From Eubacteriales bacterium (GTDB lineage: Bacteria; Bacillota; Clostridia; Oscillospirales; CAG-272), in assembly GCA_045598385.1 (NCBI GenBank), contig JAZLLY010000016.1, positions 210,000 through 273,999 on the forward strand: 64,000 nt of DNA, written 5' to 3'. A program made the translations under genes and the position numbers. The notes beneath the pieces are model-generated. The model was not told where the DNA came from and made no database searches. It saw only the letters and a list, made by a program, of their open reading frames with translations. This document shows positions 8,115-42,047 of the stretch, in pieces (position 1 is the stretch's first letter; each line of letters begins with the position of its first letter).

Positions 8115-8149
8115 ATATGCCAAAGGCATATATCATCGCACAAAGTGCG
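8115..8149. repeat. Short hairpin array (ATATGCC-aaa-GGCATAT, ATCAT, CGCAC-aaa-GTGCG)
   Basis: Two triloop hairpins separated by ATCAT. It overlaps the 3' end of the four-helix-bundle ORF. Confidence 0.7.
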
Positions 8150-8528
8150 AATTCTGATTTCTGTCATCTGTTTTTCCATCTGTTTTGCTTTTTACGGTTT
8201 TGCAAGATGCAATGAGCATAACACGGATAGATGTGCTTTGTTCGTTAAGTGTTTTGTATGTTTGTTCATCAATATAATTTGTACGGTATAAAAGTTCAAG
8301 CCAATAACCCGTTTCACTTGCTTCTTTGAGGGCAATTTCAAGTTTGGAAATAAAATCTTTTGTACCTTGTGCGTAATTTGCTTCGTATATATTCGCACCG
8401 ATTGAAGTGCCGGAACGACCGATTTGGTTGGAGATGACGGTTTCGTGTTTTGCTTTCAGGTCTTTTACAAGATTGATGATCTGAACGGAAAAGTTCATTG
8501 ATAATTCAGCAAGTTTGTTTTCTTTCAT
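8133..8528 (-). CDS. Four-helix-bundle protein (23S rRNA intervening-sequence protein / Avd-like family)
   Basis: 131 aa. The motifs QIGRSGTSIGANIYEA and LEIALKEASETGYWLELL are characteristic of this family. The gene is visibly AT-rich relative to its neighbours. Confidence 0.8.
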   Translation of the reverse strand: MKENKLAELSMNFSVQIINLVKDLKAKHETVISNQIGRSGTSIGANIYEANYAQGTKDFISKLEIALKEASETGYWLELLYRTNYIDEQTYKTLNEQSTSIRVMLIASCKTVKSKTDGKTDDRNQNSHFVR

Positions 8529-8579
8529 AAGCCATACCGCCTTTCCGCAAAAAATATATCATATTTACAGAAAAAATCA

Positions 8580-8754
8580 ATGATGTCGCCGCTATGCGGC
8601 TGATGATGTTTCGTCGCTACGCTTCGAAATGATGCTGCGTCACTTCGTGCCGCAATGATGCGATGTTTGCTCATGTGCCGTCAGGCACACATCATTGCCG
8701 AAGGCAACATCATACCCGCGGGGTACATCATTTGCCCGGCAGGGCAAACATCAT
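8580..8754. repeat. Heptamer/hexamer-spaced hairpin array (ATGATG units switching to CATCAT units)
   Basis: Left half: ATGATG followed by short palindromes. Right half: CATCAT followed by TGCC-gaa-GGCA, ACCC-gcg-GGGT and TTGCCC-ggca-GGGCAA. Confidence 0.75.
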
Positions 8755-8763
8755 TCAAAAAAG

Positions 8764-8798
8764 TGTCTTTTGTCGATAGACAAAAGAGACTTTTTTGT
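8764..8798. terminator. Bidirectional terminator-like hairpin
   Basis: AAAAAA-GTGTCTTTTGTC-gata-GACAAAAGAGAC-TTTTTT. Confidence 0.6.
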
Positions 8799-8899
8799 TG
8801 GTGCGGGAAACGGGAATTCTCGCCTGCGGGCGAGCCGCTCCGGCGGTCGCGACCGTCCACAGGAAGGTCGCTCTGTGCCGCCTCCCCTTCAATTCCCGC
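8799..8899 (-). other. tRNA-Leu-derived, tRNA-like remnant (acceptor strands and CCA retained, no canonical cloverleaf)
   Basis: The minus-strand sequence starts GCGGGAA and ends AATTCCCGTTTCCCGCACCA. Its last 20 nt are identical to the 3' end of the adjacent tRNA-Leu. The interior forms GC-rich hairpins but has no proper D, anticodon or T arms. Confidence 0.5.
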
Positions 8900-8944
8900 T
8901 TTCGATATAAAAAACCGACCGCCACAAGGACGACCGGTCTTTTA

Positions 8945-9028
8945 TGGTGCGGGAAACGGGAATTGAACCCGTACGGTAAAACCACACGCCCCTCAAACGT
9001 GCGCGTCTGCCAGTTCCGCCACTCCCGC
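8945..9028 (-). tRNA. tRNA-Leu (anticodon GAG), type II with long variable arm, CCA encoded
   Basis: Manual fold: acceptor GCGGGAG/TTCCCGC, anticodon loop TT-GAG-GG, T-arm ACGGG-TTCAATT-CCCGT, 84 nt. Confidence 0.85.
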
Positions 9029-9341: not shown

Positions 9342-9344
9342 CAA

Positions 9345-9480
9345 TGATATCCGTTCCTCTGCGGAACGGATGATATATGGCGAAGCCATATGATATCCGC
9401 TTACGCGGATGATATACGCCGAGAGGCGTATAAGGAACGGATATTATATCATGCCGAGCGGACGCGAGGTATATCATGCG
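9345..9480. repeat. ATGATAT-spaced hairpin array
   Basis: The units are TGATAT-CCGTTCC-tctg-CGGAACGG, ATGATAT-ATGGC-gaa-GCCAT, ATGATAT-CCGC-ttac-GCGG and ATGATAT-ACGCC-gaga-GGCGT, followed by degenerate units. Confidence 0.75.
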
Positions 9481-34999: not shown

Positions 35000-36007
35000 A
35001 TGAAAAAAGAATCTTTCGGAAAACTGCCGACCGGCGAAGCCGTCGATCTCTATACGATCGAAAACGAGGTCGCCAGTCTTTCCGTTATGACCAGAGGCGC
35101 CGTTATCGTTTCTTTTAAGATAAAGGGACGCGATATCATCGGCGGTTACGACACGCTCGACTCGTATCTTGCCGACGTGGACAGCCACCACGGCGGTCTG
35201 ATCGGTCGCGTCGCAAACCGGATCGGAAACGCGGCGTTCGAGATGGACGGCGTCACGTATCACGTACCGAAAAACGAGGGCGAAAACTGCCTGCACGGCG
35301 GCGTCGGCTTCGATCAGAGGATCTTTACCCTCTCGGAGTTGCGCGAGGACAGGATCTGCATGACATATCTTTCAAAAGGCGGCGAAGAGGGCTTCCCCGC
35401 CGATCTCTTCGTGGAGATCACCTACCGCCTCGAGGGGACGAGTCTGCTGCTCGATTACACGGCAAAGCCGAACGGAAAGACCCCCGTCGCCCTGACCAAT
35501 CACGCGTACTTCAATCTCAACGGATTCGGAGAATCCGCCATGTCGCACAGGATCCGCATCCTCGCCGATGCTTATACCGCGGTGGATGACGAACTGATCC
35601 CGACGGGCGAACGTCCCGCCGTCCGCGGAACACCGTTCGATCTCAACGAACTGCGAGAGATCGGCACGCTTCCCGACGGTTCTTCTTTCTGCTACGACCA
35701 TAATTTCATCCTGTCGCGCAGGATTTATGAAAACGTGATGGGCTACGATCTCGCGCTCGCCGCGGAGGTCGTAGGAGACGATCTGCGGATGACGGTCTAT
35801 ACCGATCAGCCCGGCGTCCAGTTCTATACCGCGAATCACTTCGGAGACGGTCCCGATTTTCACGGCGGAAAAAAGTCCGTGAAATACGGCGCTTTCTGTC
35901 TCGAAACGCAAACCGAGCCGGACTCTGTCCGTCACGGCGTCGGATTCACCGACAAAGACGGCATCTACCGCCATACCACGGTTTACAAAATAGACTTTGA
36001 AAAATGA
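35000..36007 (+). CDS. Aldose 1-epimerase (galactose mutarotase family)
   Basis: The motifs GRVANRI, NCLHGG and ALTNHAYFNL are typical of mutarotases. Confidence 0.85.
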   Translation: MKKESFGKLPTGEAVDLYTIENEVASLSVMTRGAVIVSFKIKGRDIIGGYDTLDSYLADVDSHHGGLIGRVANRIGNAAFEMDGVTYHVPKNEGENCLHGGVGFDQRIFTLSELREDRICMTYLSKGGEEGFPADLFVEITYRLEGTSLLLDYTAKPNGKTPVALTNHAYFNLNGFGESAMSHRIRILADAYTAVDDELIPTGERPAVRGTPFDLNELREIGTLPDGSSFCYDHNFILSRRIYENVMGYDLALAAEVVGDDLRMTVYTDQPGVQFYTANHFGDGPDFHGGKKSVKYGAFCLETQTEPDSVRHGVGFTDKDGIYRHTTVYKIDFEK

Positions 36008-36014
36008 GGAGCTT

Positions 36015-37235
36015 ATGAAAATTTACGAAGAACTCGTCGCGCGCGGACTGATCGCCCAGGTGACGAACGAAGAAGAGATCCGCACCATGATCAACGAGGG
36101 CAAAGCCACCTTTTACATCGGCTTTGACTGCACCGCCGACAGTCTGACGGCAGGTCACTTTATGGCTCTGACGCTGATGAAACGTCTGCAAATGGCAGGC
36201 AATAAACCGATCGCCCTGATCGGCGGCGGCACGACCATGATCGGCGACCCCTCCGGCAGAACGGATATGCGCAAGATGCTGACCAAAGAGGACATCGCAC
36301 ACAACGCCGACTGCTTCAAAAAGCAGATGGAACGCTTCATCGAATTCGGCGACGGAAAAGCCATGATGATCAACAACGCCGACTGGCTTTTGAATCTCAA
36401 CTACGTGGAACTGCTCAGAGACGTCGGCCCCTGCTTCTCGGTCAACAATATGCTCCGCGCCGAGTGCTATAAGCAAAGGATGGAAAAAGGACTTTCCTTC
36501 CTCGAATTCAACTACATGATCATGCAGTCTTACGACTTCTACTATCTTTTCAAGAACTACGGCTGTAATATGCAGTTCGGCGGCGACGGCCAGTGGAGCA
36601 ATATGCTCGGCGGGACCCGACTGATCCGCAAGATGCTCGGAAAAGACGCGCACGCCATGACGATCACCCTGCTCACCGACTCGAACGGTAAGAAGATGGG
36701 CAAGACCGCCGGAAACGCCGTCTGGCTCGATCCGAACAAGACGTCGCCTTACGATTTTTATCAGTACTGGCGCAACGTGGACGACACCGACGTCATGAAA
36801 TGCATCCGTATGCTGACGTTTTTGCCCCTCGATGTGATCGACGAAATGGACAAGTACGAGGGCGCGAAACTCAACGAAGCCAAAGAGATCCTCGCCTTTG
36901 AACTGACCAAGATGGTCCACGGTGAAGAAAAAGCGGAAAAAGCCAAAGCAGCGGCACGCGCCCTCTTCTCGGGCGGATCCTCCGACCTGACGCCCGCCGT
37001 CACCCTTTCCGAGGCAGACCTTTCGGACGGCGTGATCGACGTCAACTCGCTTCTCGTCCTCGGAAAACTCGTCGCTTCCCGTTCCGACGGCAGACGCGCC
37101 ATCGAACAGGGCGGCGTCACGGTGGACGACGAAAAGATCCTTAACGTCAAAGCGACCGTAACGAAAGAACAACTCGCCGCCGGCGTCCTCGTCAAACGCG
37201 GCAAAAAGAGTTTTGCCAAATTCATTCTCGGTTGA
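36015..37235 (+). CDS. tyrS: Tyrosine--tRNA ligase
   Basis: HIGH-region variant (TADSLTAGHF), KMSKS variant (KKMGKTAG) and a C-terminal S4-like domain. The ATG at 36015 follows GAGGA. Only about 8 nt separate it from the upstream stop. Confidence 0.9.
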   Translation: MKIYEELVARGLIAQVTNEEEIRTMINEGKATFYIGFDCTADSLTAGHFMALTLMKRLQMAGNKPIALIGGGTTMIGDPSGRTDMRKMLTKEDIAHNADCFKKQMERFIEFGDGKAMMINNADWLLNLNYVELLRDVGPCFSVNNMLRAECYKQRMEKGLSFLEFNYMIMQSYDFYYLFKNYGCNMQFGGDGQWSNMLGGTRLIRKMLGKDAHAMTITLLTDSNGKKMGKTAGNAVWLDPNKTSPYDFYQYWRNVDDTDVMKCIRMLTFLPLDVIDEMDKYEGAKLNEAKEILAFELTKMVHGEEKAEKAKAAARALFSGGSSDLTPAVTLSEADLSDGVIDVNSLLVLGKLVASRSDGRRAIEQGGVTVDDEKILNVKATVTKEQLAAGVLVKRGKKSFAKFILG

Positions 37236-37245
37236 CCGACCTATC

Positions 37246-37282
37246 AAAAAACGGCTTTTGCACCCGCAAGAGCCGTTTTTTT
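37246..37282 (+). terminator. Rho-independent terminator after tyrS
   Basis: AACGGCTTTTGC-accc-GCAAGAGCCGTT followed by TTTTTT. Confidence 0.75.
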
Positions 37283-37346
37283 GTGTATAAAACATCTTTT
37301 CTCCGACAAGACTAACAGCAGTATTTTTAGGAGAAAGGAAAAAGTC

Positions 37347-38075
37347 ATGGAAAACCAAAGCAAAAGATTCTCATTCAGTGAAAAACCTCTTACGACAAAA
37401 ATTGTTTACGCCGTCGTTTTGCTAACATTAGTTGTCAGTGCGATCGTCATCGGTATCGTTGCCGCCAAGAACAAGAACGCGACACCCGCGAGCGGCGATA
37501 AAAATATCGTTATGGAAGCACCGGATCCCGGCACCGACTCCGGCACCGATTCCGGCAAAAGCGGTAACACCGACACAGAACCCGGCACGGATGAAAAAGA
37601 ACAGAACAAAGAAACTCTTTCTTTTGTATCTCCCTGCGTCGGAACGATCATGACGGAACACAGTCTTACCGTCCCCGTTTTCTCGGATACGCTCGGCGAA
37701 TGGCGCGTTCACAGCGGCATTGACATTGCCACCGAGGACGGCGCACCCGTTTACGCCTCGGCGGCAGGCGTCGTCTCCGCCGTTTACAGCGATCCTCTTA
37801 TGGGAATGACGGTGGAGATCACGCACAGCAACAACTTCAAGACCGTCTATTCCAACCTGCAATCGACGCTGGCAAGCGCGATCACCGTCGGCGCCGAAGT
37901 CAAAAGCGGTGACCTGATCGGCAACGTCGGCGACACCTCAATCAAAGAACTCGCCGAAGAACCGCACCTGCACTTCGGCATGAAGATCAAGGACGCCGCC
38001 GTCAACCCGCTCGACTACCTCACCGACAGCGCGAAAGAAGCATCCCTCGGTGAAAAAACGGTAGTCTCCGCCTAA
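37347..38075 (+). CDS. M23 family metallopeptidase (membrane anchored)
   Basis: N-terminal TM helix, low-complexity linker, then HSGIDIA and PHLHFGM zinc-ligand motifs. Confidence 0.8.
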   Translation: MENQSKRFSFSEKPLTTKIVYAVVLLTLVVSAIVIGIVAAKNKNATPASGDKNIVMEAPDPGTDSGTDSGKSGNTDTEPGTDEKEQNKETLSFVSPCVGTIMTEHSLTVPVFSDTLGEWRVHSGIDIATEDGAPVYASAAGVVSAVYSDPLMGMTVEITHSNNFKTVYSNLQSTLASAITVGAEVKSGDLIGNVGDTSIKELAEEPHLHFGMKIKDAAVNPLDYLTDSAKEASLGEKTVVSA

Positions 38076-38116
38076 AAGCGCAAGCGCTTGGCGAGAGCAC
38101 TCCGGCGCTCTCGCAG

Positions 38117-38158
38117 TTATGAGTTAAGAGTTCAGAGTTATGAGTTGATGAGTCTTTG
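38117..38158. repeat. Contiguous heptamer repeat AGTTNNG x5 (reverse complement of CATAACT)
   Basis: AGTTATG AGTTAAG AGTTCAG AGTTATG AGTTGATG, preceded by the hairpin GCGAGAGC...GCTCTCGC. Confidence 0.75.
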
Positions 38159-38200
38159 GGAAACAAACCGAAAAACGATCGGGAATGCTAAAAAACAAGT

Positions 38201-38239
38201 CAAACGAAAAGAGCGTGAAATTCACGCTCTTTTCGTTTG
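38201..38239. terminator. 17-bp-stem palindrome between convergent genes (terminator; T-run on the minus-strand side)
   Basis: CAAACGAAAAGAGCGTG-aaatt-CACGCTCTTTTCGTTTG. Confidence 0.7.
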
Positions 38240-38261
38240 CCCGGAACGCAAACCATAACTT

Positions 38262-38470
38262 TTCGCTTCGCGAAAATCATAACTGCGCCAAAGGCACATC
38301 ATAACTTTGCGGCAAAGCCGCAAATCATAACTCTTCCTAAAATCCGCGCTTCGCGCGATATGGAATCTACGCGAAGCGTAGCATGGAATCCGCACAAAGT
38401 GCGGTATGGAATCCGGAATGGAATCCGGTATGGCATCCGTTGCAAGGCGGTATGAAGTCCGCCGCCGGCA
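38262..38470. repeat. Hairpin array: CATAACT-spaced units followed by (T)ATGGAATC-spaced units
   Basis: CATAACT precedes each of TTTTCGC-ttc-GCGAAAA, GCGCC-aaa-GGCAC and TTGCGG-caaa-GCCGCAA. ATGGAATC precedes CTACGC-gaa-GCGTAG, CCGCAC-aaa-GTGCGG and further units. The array lies in the 3' UTR position of the LRR gene. Confidence 0.8.
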
Positions 38471-38478
38471 TTTGCAGA

Positions 38479-41400
38479 TTATTTGCTGATATCCCCGTCG
38501 GAACAGTGAATCTTGTAAGAACTGGTATTGTAATTGTAAATCCATCTTGATCCCTTTGAGATCGCGTTCCACTGCGCCTTTGTTCCGGTGAAAGTGATGC
38601 TTGCAAGCCCACTGCAATCGTAGAACGCCCAATCGCCGATGCTCGTGACGCTCGACGGGATCGTGATGCTTGTAAGCCCACTGCAACCGGAGAACGCATA
38701 AGTGCCGATGCTCGTGACGCTCGACGGGATCGTGATGCTTGTAAGTCTTGTGCAATACCAGAACGCATCCATAGTGATGCCTTTAGTCCCGTCACGAAGC
38801 GTGACATTAATCAAAGCAGTATCGCAGCCGATCACCCATGTATCTACATAAGAAACGCCATCGACGGTTTCGATACAGGGACAACCGTAGAACGCATAAC
38901 CGCCGATGCTCGTTACGCTCGACGGGATCGTGATGCTCGTCAGACTCGAGCAACGGGAGAACGCATAACTGCCGATGCTCGTGACGCTATCCGGAATCGT
39001 AACGCTCGTCAGGTTCGTGCAATTCTCGAACGCATAACTGCCGATGCCCTTAACGCTCGACGGGATCGTGATGCTTGTCAGGCTCGAGCAATCATAGAAC
39101 GCATAATTGCCGATGCTCGTGACGCTCGACGGGATCGTGATACTCGTCAGTTTCGAGCAATAATAGAACGCATACTGATAGATCTCATAATTCTTTCCGC
39201 TCGGGGACTTTTCGGGAAGTATCAGATCGGTTTGTGTTCCCTTGTAACCAATAAGATAACTGTTCGTTCCGTCTTCATAGAAGAGATAACCGTCTTCTTC
39301 GGAAAGATAGGTTTCGCTCCCGTCGGTGATGATACGTTTGGCGTAATAACCGACGTCGCCGTTAGATGAACTTCCGGCGGTGATCGTAAGCGACGAATGG
39401 TTGCGGACCTCGATCAGTTTGTAACAACCGTAGAACGCTTCACTGCCGATGCTCGTGACGCTCGACGGGATCGTGATGCTCGTAAGACCTCTGCAACCGG
39501 AGAACGCATAATAGCCGATGCTCGTGACGCTCGACGGGATCGTGATGCTTGTAAGACCGCTGCAACCCTCGAACGCCGAATCGCCGATGCTCGTGACTCT
39601 ATCCGGGATCGTGATGCTCGTCAGACTCGAGCAACTGCAAAACGCCTGAGCGCCGATGCTCTTGACGCTCGACGGGATCGTGACGCTTGTCAGGCTCGTG
39701 CAATCCCGGAACGCATAATCGCCGATGCTTGTGACGCCCTCGGGAATCACAAGATCCGTGATCAAAACGTTATTGAGATAGAGATAATGTGCATACTCTA
39801 AAGGATTCGCACCCCAATTACCAAAGGATATGCCGCACCATTTGGCAAGATCCGTGATATATACCGCGCTCAAGTTCCAACAACCTTCAAACGCATTATC
39901 GCCGACGGCTGTGACGCCGGACGACATAGTGATACTCGTCACATTGGTACGGAAATAAAATGCGTAGTCATAGATTTTGTAAGTTTTTCCGCTAGGAGAA
40001 ACATCGGGGAGTATCAGGTCGGTTTCGCTGTCTTCATAATTCAGAAGAAAACTGTCAGTCCCGTCTTCATAAAAGATATAGTCGCCAACTGATGAGATAA
40101 AACTGTCGCCTTCATCGGTAATAATACGTTTAGCATAATATCCGACGCCTCCGTTGTCGGGGCTTCCGGCAACAATGTCAAGGGACGAAAGATTGCATAC
40201 TTCGATCAGTTTGTAGCAACCGGAGAAAGCCCCCTCACCGATGCTCTTGATACAAGCGGGAATCGTGATATGGGTAATTGAACTGAAAACGAACGCGCCC
40301 ATGGCGATACTCGTTACGCTTCCGTCATCGGGGATCACGCCGCAACATCCCCCGGCGATCAAAGTTTTGCTCGCGGTTTCGATCAGACAATTACCGGCAC
40401 TGTGATAAACCGTATTGCCGGGATCGACCGTGAAGTCCAAAAGACCGGGACAGAAATAAAACGCTAATTCTTCGATCTGCTCAACGTTTTTCGGAATCGT
40501 GATATGCGATAGACCGTAACATTCACCGAATGCCGCGAATCCGATGCTCGTGACGCTTTCCGGAATTGTGAAAGACGTAAGATCGTGGCAGCAGTAAAAC
40601 GCGCCTCCACCTATGATCGTGCATTGACTGTTTTTGGCAAAGGTGACGCTTTTTAGTCCCTCACAATCCGAAAAAGCTTGCTCGCCGATGATTCTGACAC
40701 TCGACGGGATCGTAACGCTCTTCAGGGTTTCATCCTGATCAAAAGCAAACGCTTCGTCGGCGATTTCAACGACGCCCTCGGGAATATCAATATCTGTCAA
40801 AGTTTTTCCGTAATCCGTCAGTCCCATAACGACGGTTTTCGTCTCGTCAAAAATGAAAACGTCAAAGATGCTGACGGCCCGGAAAGTGGCAGTATAAGTT
40901 GCATTTCCGGTAACGGCTGAAAGCGGCTTGTCCCAGCCCGAAAAGACGAACATGGTTTCTCCGTCCGTCGGCTTTGTCGGCGTATTTCCGTCATAGGAGG
41001 GGACATCTCCCGTTTTCAGGGAATCCGTCTTCAGTACGGTGCCGTCGTAGTTTTTCCACGCGACGGTATAACTTTTGTTGTCCTTTTTATTCTTCGTGTA
41101 ATGCGCCTTGTAGGTCACGTCGTGATTGACCGGCGAAAACGTCGGCGTCCAGCCGGAAAACGTATAGAAGAACTTGTCTTCCGCGGCTCTCTGCGGCTCC
41201 GCCCCTTTATAAGACGGCATCTCGCCCTCTTTTACCGTTTCCGTCATCAGCAAGGTGCCGTCAAAATCTTCCCACGTGACGGTATAGGTGTTGACGTCTT
41301 CTTTTTCGGTAATGCCTAATTTTTCTCCGATCTCATCGAAAAGGTCGGATATCCCGACTTTGTCCCCGATGCCTTGGAAAAGACCGGTGATTTGCCCGGA

Positions 41401-41487
41401 TTCCGCATCGCACGCTGAAAATGCAAAAAGCACCGTCAGAAGCGACAATGCCAGCAAAAAGATTTTGAGCGCGGTTTTCTTAAACAT
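38479..41487 (-). CDS. Surface lipoprotein: N-terminal Listeria-Bacteroides (Flg_new/InlB B-type) repeats plus many BspA-type leucine-rich repeats
   Basis: Lipobox LFAFSAC. Repeats of the form YTVTWEDFDGT...FSGWTP. More than 15 units of about 23 aa resemble LTSITIPSSVTSIGxYAFxxCSS. The ATG at 41487 follows GGAG. The DNA carries matching repeats of about 70 bp. Confidence 0.85.
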   Translation of the reverse strand: MFKKTALKIFLLALSLLTVLFAFSACDAESGQITGLFQGIGDKVGISDLFDEIGEKLGITEKEDVNTYTVTWEDFDGTLLMTETVKEGEMPSYKGAEPQRAAEDKFFYTFSGWTPTFSPVNHDVTYKAHYTKNKKDNKSYTVAWKNYDGTVLKTDSLKTGDVPSYDGNTPTKPTDGETMFVFSGWDKPLSAVTGNATYTATFRAVSIFDVFIFDETKTVVMGLTDYGKTLTDIDIPEGVVEIADEAFAFDQDETLKSVTIPSSVRIIGEQAFSDCEGLKSVTFAKNSQCTIIGGGAFYCCHDLTSFTIPESVTSIGFAAFGECYGLSHITIPKNVEQIEELAFYFCPGLLDFTVDPGNTVYHSAGNCLIETASKTLIAGGCCGVIPDDGSVTSIAMGAFVFSSITHITIPACIKSIGEGAFSGCYKLIEVCNLSSLDIVAGSPDNGGVGYYAKRIITDEGDSFISSVGDYIFYEDGTDSFLLNYEDSETDLILPDVSPSGKTYKIYDYAFYFRTNVTSITMSSGVTAVGDNAFEGCWNLSAVYITDLAKWCGISFGNWGANPLEYAHYLYLNNVLITDLVIPEGVTSIGDYAFRDCTSLTSVTIPSSVKSIGAQAFCSCSSLTSITIPDRVTSIGDSAFEGCSGLTSITIPSSVTSIGYYAFSGCRGLTSITIPSSVTSIGSEAFYGCYKLIEVRNHSSLTITAGSSSNGDVGYYAKRIITDGSETYLSEEDGYLFYEDGTNSYLIGYKGTQTDLILPEKSPSGKNYEIYQYAFYYCSKLTSITIPSSVTSIGNYAFYDCSSLTSITIPSSVKGIGSYAFENCTNLTSVTIPDSVTSIGSYAFSRCSSLTSITIPSSVTSIGGYAFYGCPCIETVDGVSYVDTWVIGCDTALINVTLRDGTKGITMDAFWYCTRLTSITIPSSVTSIGTYAFSGCSGLTSITIPSSVTSIGDWAFYDCSGLASITFTGTKAQWNAISKGSRWIYNYNTSSYKIHCSDGDISK

Positions 41488-41532
41488 ATGTTTCTCCTTT
41501 GGCTTTCGCCGTCGTCTTATTTTGTCCACTTA

Positions 41533-41707
41533 TTGTGAAAATAGGTGAACAATAATACGATTTTATCATATCACGCGCGCGGAAAATTGTCAATGATAAT
41601 TTTATTTTACGCTAATCCAAATATATTTTTAGAAAAATGCTTCCTTTACGTCCTTTTTTTCGTTTATCCCGCGAAAAATGCCCGTTTTTGTTCACCTATT
41701 TTCACAA
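41533..41707. promoter_or_regulatory. Invertible-promoter-like element (inverton candidate), promoter currently facing the LRR lipoprotein gene (ON)
   Basis: Perfect 20-bp inverted repeats: TTGTGAAAATAGGTGAACAA (41533-41552) and TTGTTCACCTATTTTCACAA (41688-41707). They flank 135 bp. The insert carries, on the minus strand, TTGACA (41593-41588), a 17-nt spacer and TGaTATGAT (-10 at 41570-41565). Confidence 0.65.
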
Positions 41708-41750
41708 CAGATGAACATTTCCGGGGCGGTTTTTTAGATCCCGGGAAGCA

Positions 41751-41790
41751 AAAAGGGAAAAGAACGGACGTTCTCTTCCCTTTAATTTTT
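41751..41790. terminator. Terminator insulating the 41.5-kb switch from upstream nfnAB transcription
   Basis: GGGAAAAGAAC-ggac-GTTCTCTTCCC with A/T runs on both sides. On the minus strand it is followed by TTTTTGC. Confidence 0.65.
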
Positions 41791-41820
41791 GTATTGTTTT
41801 TTTACAATTTCCGCCATCGC

Positions 41821-41947
41821 CGCCTCGCTCTGCGAGCGAACGATGCGTTTCGCACACGAAACGCATCTCATAACTTTGCGGCAGCGCCGCAAATCATAAC
41901 TGTGCCGTAGGTACACCATAACTTGCCCGAAGGGCAATCATAACTGA
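41821..41947. repeat. CATAACT-spaced hairpin array (same orientation as 38262-38335)
   Basis: Starts with CGCTC-tgc-GAGCG and ATGCGTTTCG-caca-CGAAACGCAT. Then CATAACT precedes each of TTGCGG-cagc-GCCGCAA, GTGCC-gta-GGTAC and TGCCC-gaa-GGGCA. Confidence 0.8.
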
Positions 41948-41979
41948 TAAGAGCCGGGGAAAGTCCGGCTCTTTGGTCT

Positions 41980-42047
41980 GCGCAAAAAGCGCACGTTTTC
42001 AAACGCAAAAAGCGCACGTTTTCAAACGCAATAAGCGCGCGTTTTAC
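41980..42047. repeat. 23-bp tandem direct repeat x3 abutting the nfnB-like stop codon
   Basis: GCGCAAAAAGCGCACGTTTTCAA / ACGCAAAAAGCGCACGTTTTCAA / ACGCAATAAGCGCGCGTTTTAC. Confidence 0.8.

Follow-up and report, generated by a model that had tools for sequence, protein, structure and literature searches.

Mirrored heptamer-hairpin arrays between convergent genes in a Clostridia genome: probable composite copy of a dispersed intergenic repeat family around Gut-1

What fills the 403-bp gap between two convergent stop codons at positions 38076-38478 of the 64,000-nucleotide stretch of Eubacteriales DNA analysed here (the window, C16:210000-273999, where C and a number denote a contig of the assembly)? 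A run of heptamers, a long palindrome and two series of small hairpins follow each other there, and no open reading frame (ORF) lies within the region. A preliminary description held that no repeat family explains this complex. Our analysis gives a different answer: the region belongs to a genome-wide family and is a mosaic of dispersed modules, common to many loci, from a family around the Rfam entry Gut-1. We are highly confident of this identity: a composite copy, without an ORF, from a mosaic repeat family dispersed between genes. That such a copy also acts as a set of single-strand hairpin arrays in 3' regions is the combined reading that we favour, with a probability of roughly 0.6.

Small corrections apart, the features first described are all present in the sequence, and the complex does lie between convergent genes (Peptidase_M23 on the plus strand, LRR_5 on the minus strand). 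The modules of the gap are as follows.

38091-38114, no strand assigned: GC hairpin GCGAGAGC / GCTCTCGC with an 8-nt loop, abutting the heptamer run on its 5' side
38115-38149, plus strand: left-type linker run without hairpins, AGTTATG AGTTAAG AGTTCAG AGTTATG AGTTGATG, of the form AGTTNNG
38150-38200, no strand assigned: centre module, AGTCTTTGGGAAAC... and then an A-tract, A-rich; paralogues at C3:47998-48050 and C39:9085-9187
38201-38239, no strand assigned: palindrome module, A-tract, core GAGCGTGA-loop-TCACGCTC, T-tract
38254-38332, plus strand: right-type array, four CATAACT (TCATAAC) linkers with hairpins at 38260-38276, 38284-38298 and 38306-38324
38333-38359, plus strand: junction CTTCCTAAAATC and hairpin CGCGC TTC GCGCG (38345-38357), opening the ATGGAATC module common to C8 and C10
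38360-38470, plus strand: left-type array, six ATGGAATC-type linkers with hairpins; paralogues at C8:6541-6652 (96-98%) and C10:24608-24743 (87%)

The run of left heptamers is real, although it starts at 38115 and not at 38117 and is made of four heptamers and the 8-mer AGTTGATG instead of five heptamers; Tandem Repeats Finder gives it a period of 7 and 4.6 copies (38115-38146), and on the minus strand it reads as CATAACT-type units. The arms of the palindrome at 38201-38239, each of 19 nt, stand 1 nt apart and are 100% complementary, and the stem therefore counts 18 pairs with a 3-nt loop, not the 17 first given. Four CATAACT linkers (starting at 38254, 38278, 38300 and 38326) are likewise present, but they are not each followed by a perfect hairpin: the first and third hairpins are perfect (7 bp and 8 bp), the second, TGCGCC AAA GGCACA, has a single C.A mismatch on the plus strand, and after the fourth linker come 12 nt and then the 5-bp hairpin at 38345-38357, so that this linker has no directly adjoining hairpin. 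The third unit of this array is the most frequent unit of the genome. The change of spacer reported for about six further units corresponds to the six ATGGAATC-type linkers counted at 38360-38470, with exact ATGGAATC at 38360, 38383, 38406 and 38418, ATGGCATC at 38430 and ATGAAGTC at 38452; the hairpins of this array are TACGC GAA GCGTA, CCGCAC AAA GTGCGG and CCGTT GCAA GGCGG, the last with two G.T pairs on the plus strand. Units are regularly spaced at 22-26 bp, the constant part being 7-8 nt long and the variable parts palindromes of 13-19 nt drawn from a limited, related set. The whole gap folds far more stably than shuffled sequence on both strands (z of -7.7 and -7.8, with 0 of 100 shuffles reaching the observed value for either). 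The window contains 13 copies of CATAACT where 2.87 are expected, a count reached in none of 100 shuffles; ATGGAATC, allowing up to one mismatch, is not enriched across the window (49 against 65 expected), and only its local cluster stands out.

The identity of the region rests first on where else its parts occur. The genome comprises 1.50 Mb in 43 contigs with 52.9% GC and is 99.08% complete, and when 38076-38478 was compared with it by blastn, every module had paralogues elsewhere: the heptamer run and centre at the C3 and C39 loci listed above, the palindrome at no fewer than seven other intergenic loci (C10 twice, C8, C17, C6, C7, C39), the CATAACT units at about 30 loci, and the complete ATGGAATC array on C8 and C10. 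The order of modules on C8 is CATAACT array, palindrome and ATGGAATC array, whereas here the palindrome precedes both arrays. Since every module has paralogues and module order differs between loci, the mosaic is like that of the bacterial interspersed mosaic elements (BIMEs) of enterobacteria. The palindrome module keeps its form of A-tract, GAGCGTGA-loop-TCACGCTC and T-tract in 8 of 8 copies, and the C39 copy has compensated changes in its stem. Read on the minus strand it gives 18 pairs followed by ACTTGTTTTT and is scored as terminator-like by a terminator scan; a reading by hand of the plus strand shows TTTTCGTTTG after the core stem. The palindrome is probably a bidirectional terminator module common to the two convergent genes, and is itself a dispersed repeat, not a structure that evolved for this locus.

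The census of heptamer-hairpin arrays across the genome that the preliminary description had proposed was carried out and gave 32 CATAACT arrays (three or more CATAACT at hairpin spacing), with 149 units in all, and six heptamer-run loci. None of the 32 arrays overlaps coding sequence by a single base pair, coding overlap being judged with a self-trained codon and gene model that reproduces the Pfam-supported genes. ATCATAACT is found 84 times in the genome against about 8.5 expected, and 142 exact 7-mers form periodic arrays, compared with 3 in a shuffled genome; besides CATAACT/AGTTATG the main array words are AGTGATG/CATCACT, ATGATGT/ACATCAT and ATGATAT/ATATCAT. Perfect hairpins of 5 bp or more are present in 83 of 127 inter-linker units, while shuffles gave 1.4 (maximum 7 of 127 in 200 shuffles). 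These 127 units comprise 69 distinct sequences, across which the maintenance of hairpins is strong. When units of equal ordinal position are compared between 22 paralogous elements, their differences include compensated changes on both sides of the stem, for example GCGGC/GCCGC and GCGGT/ACCGC, or GTGCC/GGCAC and GTACC/GGTAC with GTGCC/GGTAC as the G.T intermediate. At least 45 merged array regions were counted in the genome. The arrays probably break short-read assemblies, and copy numbers are therefore lower bounds. Of the sequencing runs found to contain this DNA none is an RNA run; two DNA runs with small shares (0.16 and 0.06) yielded contigs that do not span the array and only repeat-type loose ends. 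It was also observed that arrays are often at or near contig ends (C17:30534-31087, C42:56662-56857, C13:25180-25579, C8:44219-44463).

Beyond this genome the CATAACT form is scarce. A pattern of three CATAACT had 60 matches here, 1 and 3 in two genomes of the same genus, both of which also have the mirrored form, and 0 in the other 38 relatives searched; this variant is nearly private to the source species. A scan for CATAACT-N-CATAACT-N-CATAACT returned at least 114 metagenome loci and 97 viral loci; among 149 strand-wise runs with two or more CATAACT-spaced segments, hairpins between linkers were found in one (L118), and the rest are ordinary tandem repeats.

The arrays are strictly intergenic and avoid divergent promoter regions. 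Their flanking genes are convergent in 12 cases, tandem in 13 and divergent in one, with a contig end on one side in the remaining 6; the binomial P for one or fewer divergent contexts among 26 is 0.0055. Of the 45 array regions, 13 lie within 400 bp of one of the 44 tRNA or tmRNA genes, 10 of them on its 3' side. In relatives the canonical elements begin directly after the CCA end of different tRNA and tmRNA genes and are near-identical across families. A sigma-70 promoter reading leftwards into the canonical arrays had been suspected by eye; scans did not confirm it and it was dropped.

The mirror relation between AGTTATG and CATAACT noticed at this locus is real and recurs. Heptamer-run loci with three or more AGTTATG-like units number 6 in the genome, all intergenic (a reversed control pattern gave 0); a GC hairpin precedes the run at all six, and a CATAACT-hairpin array follows it at four. 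Left-type words (GTGATG, GTTATG, ATGATAT and similar) occur within 200 nt on the 5' side of 29 of the 32 CATAACT arrays, and these flanks hold in total 70 left-type words against 21 right-type words. Twenty-seven elements from relatives share one grammar of terminator hairpin, first hairpin, left block and right block. A second complement to the 5' arm of the first hairpin lies beyond the left block; left and right blocks each comprise three or four linkers with hairpins, and the right linkers are the reverse complement of the left (GTGAAAT/ATTTCAC, ATGAAAT/ATTTCAT, ATGATAT/ATATCAT, GTGATAT/ATATCAC, GTGGTAT/ATACCAC). Judged from these elements, the mirror layout is the mark of a wider family.

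This family has been met before in one of its parts. Gut-1 (RF01706) is, in the portions of Weinberg et al. 2010 (PMC2864571) available to us, a candidate non-coding RNA from the human gut only and unaffiliated with mRNAs, with a seed alignment of three hairpins joined by GUGAAAU. Its covariance model has a gathering score of 50 bits; in this genome it gives 39 matches at E<=1, one of them above that score (window 9342-9420, 53.7 bits), and by hand comparison a Gut-1 match stands directly 5' and on the same strand of at least 11 of the 32 CATAACT arrays. In a sample of 121 genomes of the order, 56 contain Gut-1 at E<=1e-3, 43 of them above the cut-off, with up to 34 scored copies in a positive genome (at most 35 being scored per genome). 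We take Gut-1 to be the only described piece of this repeat family, of which the Rfam model covers the left half alone. The gap at 38076-38478 has the hallmark of Gut-1, three or more short variable hairpins with a constant linker (CATAACT four times, ATGGAATC-type six times). As the region is not recognised by the Gut-1 model, it is filed not as a Gut-1 member but as a putative new linker variant of the Gut-1 kind (GTTATGA/TCATAAC and ATGGAATC), amplified in the species. A search of the literature accessible to us found no functional work on Gut-1.

Comparison with known systems helps to place the family. With Gut-1 it shares short covarying hairpins, a constant purine-rich heptamer (GUGAAAU in the seed) and an occurrence in gut Clostridia, the available parts of the published description being the basis of comparison; the linkers differ, being GTTATGA/TCATAAC and ATGGAATC here. 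Five features of the family have no counterpart in those parts of the Weinberg 2010 account: a right half that mirrors the left, a terminator module, a form made of heptamer runs, a position at tRNA 3' ends, and the neighbouring PF05635 gene discussed below.

Repetitive extragenic palindromic (REP) sequences and BIMEs of Enterobacteria and Pseudomonas are high-copy intergenic palindromes with short fixed linkers, arranged in mosaics of variable order and associated with REP-associated tyrosine transposases (RAYTs). The present family is like them in being strictly intergenic (the 32 arrays without coding overlap), in lying at gene 3' ends and in convergent gaps, and in avoiding promoters. It is their reverse in that the stems are diverse (69 distinct among 127 units) and the linker constant; the constant part is thus the linker, and no conserved palindrome with a 5' GTAG-type tetranucleotide, the REP trait, was found. 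The mirrored left and right blocks and the Gram-positive lineage also set it apart. Membership of the RAYT/REP system was ruled out, since the genome, at its 99.08% completeness, has 0 matches to Y1_Tnp/RAYT (PF01797) in a search whose control was positive in 6 of 14 known genomes.

A clustered regularly interspaced short palindromic repeats (CRISPR) array, with repeats of about 23-50 bp and unique non-palindromic spacers of similar length, is excluded by the constant unit of 7-8 nt and the palindromic variable units of 13-19 nt. Cyanobacterial short tandemly repeated repetitive (STRR) sequences are intergenic tandem heptamers, and the contiguous 7-nt intergenic direct repeats here resemble both them and the TAACTGA repeats, the run reading TAACTCA-like on the minus strand, one base from TAACTGA. 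Here the heptamer doubles as a hairpin linker and has a reverse-complement partner array nearby. TAACTGA direct repeats whose function is unexplained occur between genes, patchily across phyla, in Beggiatoaceae, Cyanobacteria and Bacteroidetes, according to the passages available from MacGregor 2015 (PMC4679880), in which hairpin arrays and PF05635 are not mentioned; the terms 'intervening sequence', 'four helix' and 'S23' have 0 occurrences in the text obtained of that paper and of Rehm 2015. The palindrome at 38201-38239 resembles a bidirectional intrinsic terminator in its A-tract, GC-rich stem, T-tract and position between convergent genes, a resemblance predicted from sequence, and differs in being a dispersed repeat module with at least seven other loci. 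Finally, the mirrored linker blocks resemble the inverted ends of miniature inverted-repeat transposable elements, for which PF05635 is the sole candidate autonomous partner; no close strain was found.

Several patterns suggest that the arrays fold as single strands. Tandem-G.A units (GAGC-loop-GCGA), which are not Watson-Crick palindromes, occur 25 times on the CATAACT strand, while the complementary TC type occurs 0 times. Among the 142 hairpins in the 27 elements from relatives, the Gut-1-sense strand shows internal single mismatches of the types G.T (9), A.G (4), others (4) and A.C (0). A right linker with a final T goes with an initial A (14) or G (11) in the left linker, and one with a final C goes with an initial G (53) and seldom an A (4, three of the four being the initial non-linker position). 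The compared elements are related, so that neither mismatch nor linker counts are independent. The tolerance at the linker ends appears to be that expected of pairing. Together, the G.A, G.T and linker-end patterns point to a folded single strand of fixed polarity, from left block to right block. The unit hairpins are short and GC, mostly with 3-nt loops, and GNA-type loops closed by C-G are prevalent, which is reminiscent of very stable DNA mini-hairpins.

The family consists of units of a short GC hairpin on a constant linker of 7-8 nt, set in left and right blocks with reverse-complement linkers and associated with a linker-only heptamer run and a putative bidirectional-terminator palindrome. 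We propose that it may function like REP/BIME elements, through single-stranded arrays of stem-loops in 3' regions. At the present locus, transcription from both convergent genes would stop at the palindrome. The heptamer run would then belong to the M23 mRNA, and the leucine-rich-repeat (LRR) mRNA would have in its 3' untranslated region (UTR) some ten small stem-loops, the ATGGAATC and CATAACT arrays read in antisense. By analogy with REP elements, these stacked stem-loops could slow 3' exonucleases and so protect 3' ends. Everything right of the palindrome is bounded on the minus strand by the LRR stop codon and the putative terminator hairpin with its T-run, and is plausibly the LRR 3' UTR, a position that the preliminary description gave to the whole complex. 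A 3'-UTR or terminator role is a tentative suggestion, somewhat less likely than not.

Besides the non-independence of the counts, several results weigh against the combined reading. No Gut-1 match at E<=1 exists in window 36000-42000. The REP analogy can be functional only, because the genome has no Y1/RAYT transposase. Single stem mismatches in the CATAACT units of this genome are symmetric (G.T 4, C.A 3), and at the locus itself the minus strand favours the hairpin of unit 2 while the plus strand, which runs antisense to the LRR mRNA, favours CCGTT-GCAA-GGCGG. Array orientation is unbiased with respect to GC skew (13/19) or gene-strand majority (15/17), it is sense in 8 and antisense in 5 of the tandem gene contexts, and no consistent transcript strand emerges from the orientation of the arrays in this genome. 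Canonical Gut-1 copies, moreover, lie after a terminator and before a promoter, a poor fit to a simple 3'-UTR role.

The position of the canonical copies draws attention to the small genes of family PF05635 (23S_rRNA_IVP, an Avd-like four-helix bundle) beside them. Such a gene follows the array in 3 of 20 loci of relatives (E 1.5e-20 in one, a weak match in another, and one recognised by eye). This genome has two, with matches at C11:1060-1371 and window 8211-8522 (gene 8133-8525), and both are directly 3' of a tRNA and a Gut-1 array, after tRNA-Gln on C11 and tRNA-Leu in the window. Among 121 genomes, 48 have both Gut-1 and PF05635, 8 Gut-1 alone, 10 PF05635 alone and 55 neither, an odds ratio of 33 for relatives that are not independent. 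When the 20 best-scoring PF05635 genes of the order were chosen regardless of Gut-1, the upstream 700 nt held a linker-type repeat immediately before the gene in all 20; Rfam recognised Gut-1 on the same strand in 4, and by eye there were hairpin arrays in 9 and contiguous heptamer runs in 11. The 11 runs sit between the upstream stop codon and the ribosome-binding site, for example (TAGTTGC)n, (GCATAAT)n and (AATGCAG)n. Heptamer run and hairpin array thus look like two forms of one element tied to the PF05635 family. The closest solved structure to the protein of window 8133-8525 is 2rld, titled 'uncharacterized protein' (E 5e-30).

Some observations on these loci may be recorded in their own right. 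On the minus strand, window 8133-9028 holds a cassette of tRNA-Leu, terminator, Gut-1-type mirrored array (ATGATGT four times, CATCAT four times), promoter-like stretch and PF05635 gene, and a near-identical cassette follows tRNA-Gln at C11:1060-1722, where the PF05635 gene contains a TAA in frame. Window 8799-8899 (minus strand), which separates tRNA-Leu from the cassette, is a stretch of about 100 nt that starts with GCGGGAA and ends with the last 19 nt of the tRNA including CCA; similar stretches of about 100 nt are present in L244, L246 and L247, and ARAGORN calls no tRNA in 8799-8899. It could be an acceptor-stem mimic or a duplicated tRNA 3' end, as at integration sites. Several genes upstream of the PF05635 genes of the order resemble, by eye, the C-termini of methylases and restriction systems. 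According to the parts of the sources available, PF05635-family genes are known as small insertions in loci of other kinds, cas operons among them (PMC3936711), and the family is related to Avd of diversity-generating retroelements (PMC10053308). A link to such retroelements was rejected, as the single reverse-transcriptase (RVT_1) gene of the genome (C18:6939-7559, a 441-aa frame on a 7.98-kb contig) is not near any array. No paper linking hairpin arrays or heptamer repeats to PF05635 genes was found in a search of the literature accessible to us.

It is against this background that the explanations other than ours have to be weighed. The arrays might be non-autonomous copies of a mobile cassette of terminator, mirrored array or heptamer run, and PF05635 gene, which lands after tRNA 3' ends and stop codons; solo arrays such as the present one would be derivatives that lack the ORF and move by way of a strand-specific intermediate of single-stranded DNA (or RNA), in the way that REPINs (REP doublets forming hairpins) rely on RAYTs. 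The position of both PF05635 genes 3' of a tRNA and Gut-1, the near-identical cassettes after two different tRNAs, the co-occurrence of Gut-1 and PF05635 (with its caveat of relatedness), the repeat upstream of 20 of 20 genes, the near-identical canonical elements after different tRNA and tmRNA genes in different families, the patchy distribution with species-specific copy numbers, and the strand polarity seen in the G.A and G.T asymmetries all speak for such a cassette. However, there is no PF05635 gene near 38076-38478, the nearest being that of window 8133-8525; five or more linker variants face two PF05635 genes, both beside ATGATGT/CATCAT, so that one protein per linker fails; 8 of 56 Gut-1-positive genomes have no PF05635; and no target-site duplication or empty-site comparison was obtained, no close strain having been found. 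To our knowledge the four-helix bundle has no nuclease or transposase activity, which counts against it as well. We consider this explanation rather unlikely. The same goes for the joint claim to which it leads, a speculative one, that runs and arrays are one cis element and the nucleic-acid partner of PF05635 proteins, forming an unrecognised class of self-propagating cassettes that home to tRNA 3' ends and stop codons and shed many ORF-less mosaic copies. If true, it would be a Gram-positive counterpart of the REPIN-RAYT partnership, would give a first function to orphan Gut-1 and to the widespread '23S rRNA intervening sequence protein' family, and possibly also to the unexplained heptamer repeats of cyanobacteria and Bacteroidetes.

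The remaining explanations carry much less weight with us. That the arrays are double-stranded DNA binding sites, with the heptamer as a protein site opposed in the two halves and the hairpins as spacers, in the manner of the multi-site ends of some transposons or of nucleoid or gyrase sites, would account for left and right linkers that are always reverse complements across at least five variants and homogeneous within one element, for the spacing of 22-26 bp and for the lack of wobble asymmetry in the stems of this genome. Unconstrained spacers, though, would not stay perfect palindromes across 69 distinct sequences, and the 25 to 0 count of tandem-G.A units and the 9 to 0 count of G.T over A.C make sense only for a folded single strand; a right linker in T that accepts a left G (11) or A (14), with C and A rarely combined (4), likewise follows pairing and not site identity. 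We regard binding sites as improbable. Still less can be said for a locus-specific RNA device, the idea of the preliminary description, in which the left heptamers pair with CATAACT in the LRR 3' UTR and control the fate of the mRNA. Minimum-energy folds of the whole 403 nt do contain AGTTATG:CATAACT pairs on both strands, and an inverted repeat upstream of the LRR gene is, by eye, like that of an invertible promoter. But all modules are dispersed repeats, relatives have neither the LRR gene nor the array at this site, and the variant left units AGTTAAG and AGTTCAG are without CTTAACT and CTGAACT partners. Pairing of left and right heptamers within one transcript is also unlikely because the terminator-like palindrome, a putative bidirectional terminator, separates the two halves, and such a device seems to us very improbable. 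The least probable explanation is a stand-alone small RNA gene. Weinberg et al. 2010 (PMC2864571), in the portions available, rated Gut-1 as an RNA unaffiliated with mRNAs, and strand polarity is present; a promoter scan of 37500-39000, on the other hand, found 0 promoter-like sites, and dozens of mosaic copies with shuffled module order are unlike one RNA gene.

How the composite copy relates to its surroundings can be seen from the flanking genes and from a second array on the far side of the LRR gene.

37281-38075, plus strand: flanking gene for an M23 peptidase (PF01551, E 2.5e-24)
38479-41529, minus strand: flanking gene for a BspA-type leucine-rich-repeat surface protein of 1016 aa (PF13306, LRR_5, E 1.2e-153)
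41808-41945, plus strand: second array, of the same family, on the other side of the LRR gene, with central palindrome GATGCGTTTCG..CGAAACGCATC, then CATAACT four times and three hairpins

CATAACT arrays therefore flank the LRR gene on both sides, at 38254-38332 and 41869-41945. Pfam names on the plus strand are aspartate-semialdehyde dehydrogenase, aldose epimerase, tyrosyl-tRNA synthetase and M23 peptidase. At 11 of 13 same-genus loci compared, a plain terminator comes after the M23 gene and then a putative homoserine-dehydrogenase-like gene, an identification made by eye on the N-terminal sequence; array and LRR gene are absent from these loci. The same-genus M23 orthologues, which are without arrays, are at most 54% identical, and a metagenome scan with the M23 protein recovered no relative. 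Because these M23 loci have no LRR gene or array, the LRR gene is a species-specific insert, and the arrays may be mere markers of the joints. The dispersed modules and the same-genus loci without array and LRR gene also give no reason to tie the complex functionally to the LRR gene, and it is probably not a purpose-made regulator of that gene.

The interest of 38076-38478 itself is moderate; more attaches to the rules at family level and to the lead towards PF05635. In uncultured gut Clostridia with small genomes, such arrays take up a visible share of the non-coding DNA, and recognising them as a dispersed mosaic repeat guards against mistaking a copy for a bespoke regulator, a CRISPR-like array or a small RNA. 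The rules of the family, namely covariation of reverse-complement linkers, polarity of the fold, a travelling terminator module, canonical copies at tRNA 3' ends and an Avd-like PF05635 gene as near-constant neighbour, make the 16-year-old orphan Gut-1 testable.

Three further observations concern the LRR gene and its upstream side. A 19-nt inverted repeat (TTGTGAAAATAGGTGAACA and its complement, at 41533-41551 and 41689-41707) encloses about 140 bp immediately 5' of the LRR start codon and resembles, by eye, an invertible-promoter switch. After the second CATAACT array, three tandem small terminator-like units (GCGCA-AAAAG-CGCAC and then GTTTTCAAAC) lie at 41975-42047. The LRR gene has, at 38594-39737, several tracts of tandem repeats with a 69-bp unit (2.2 to 4.5 copies, 78-91% matches), and CATAACT happens to occur in two of these tracts.

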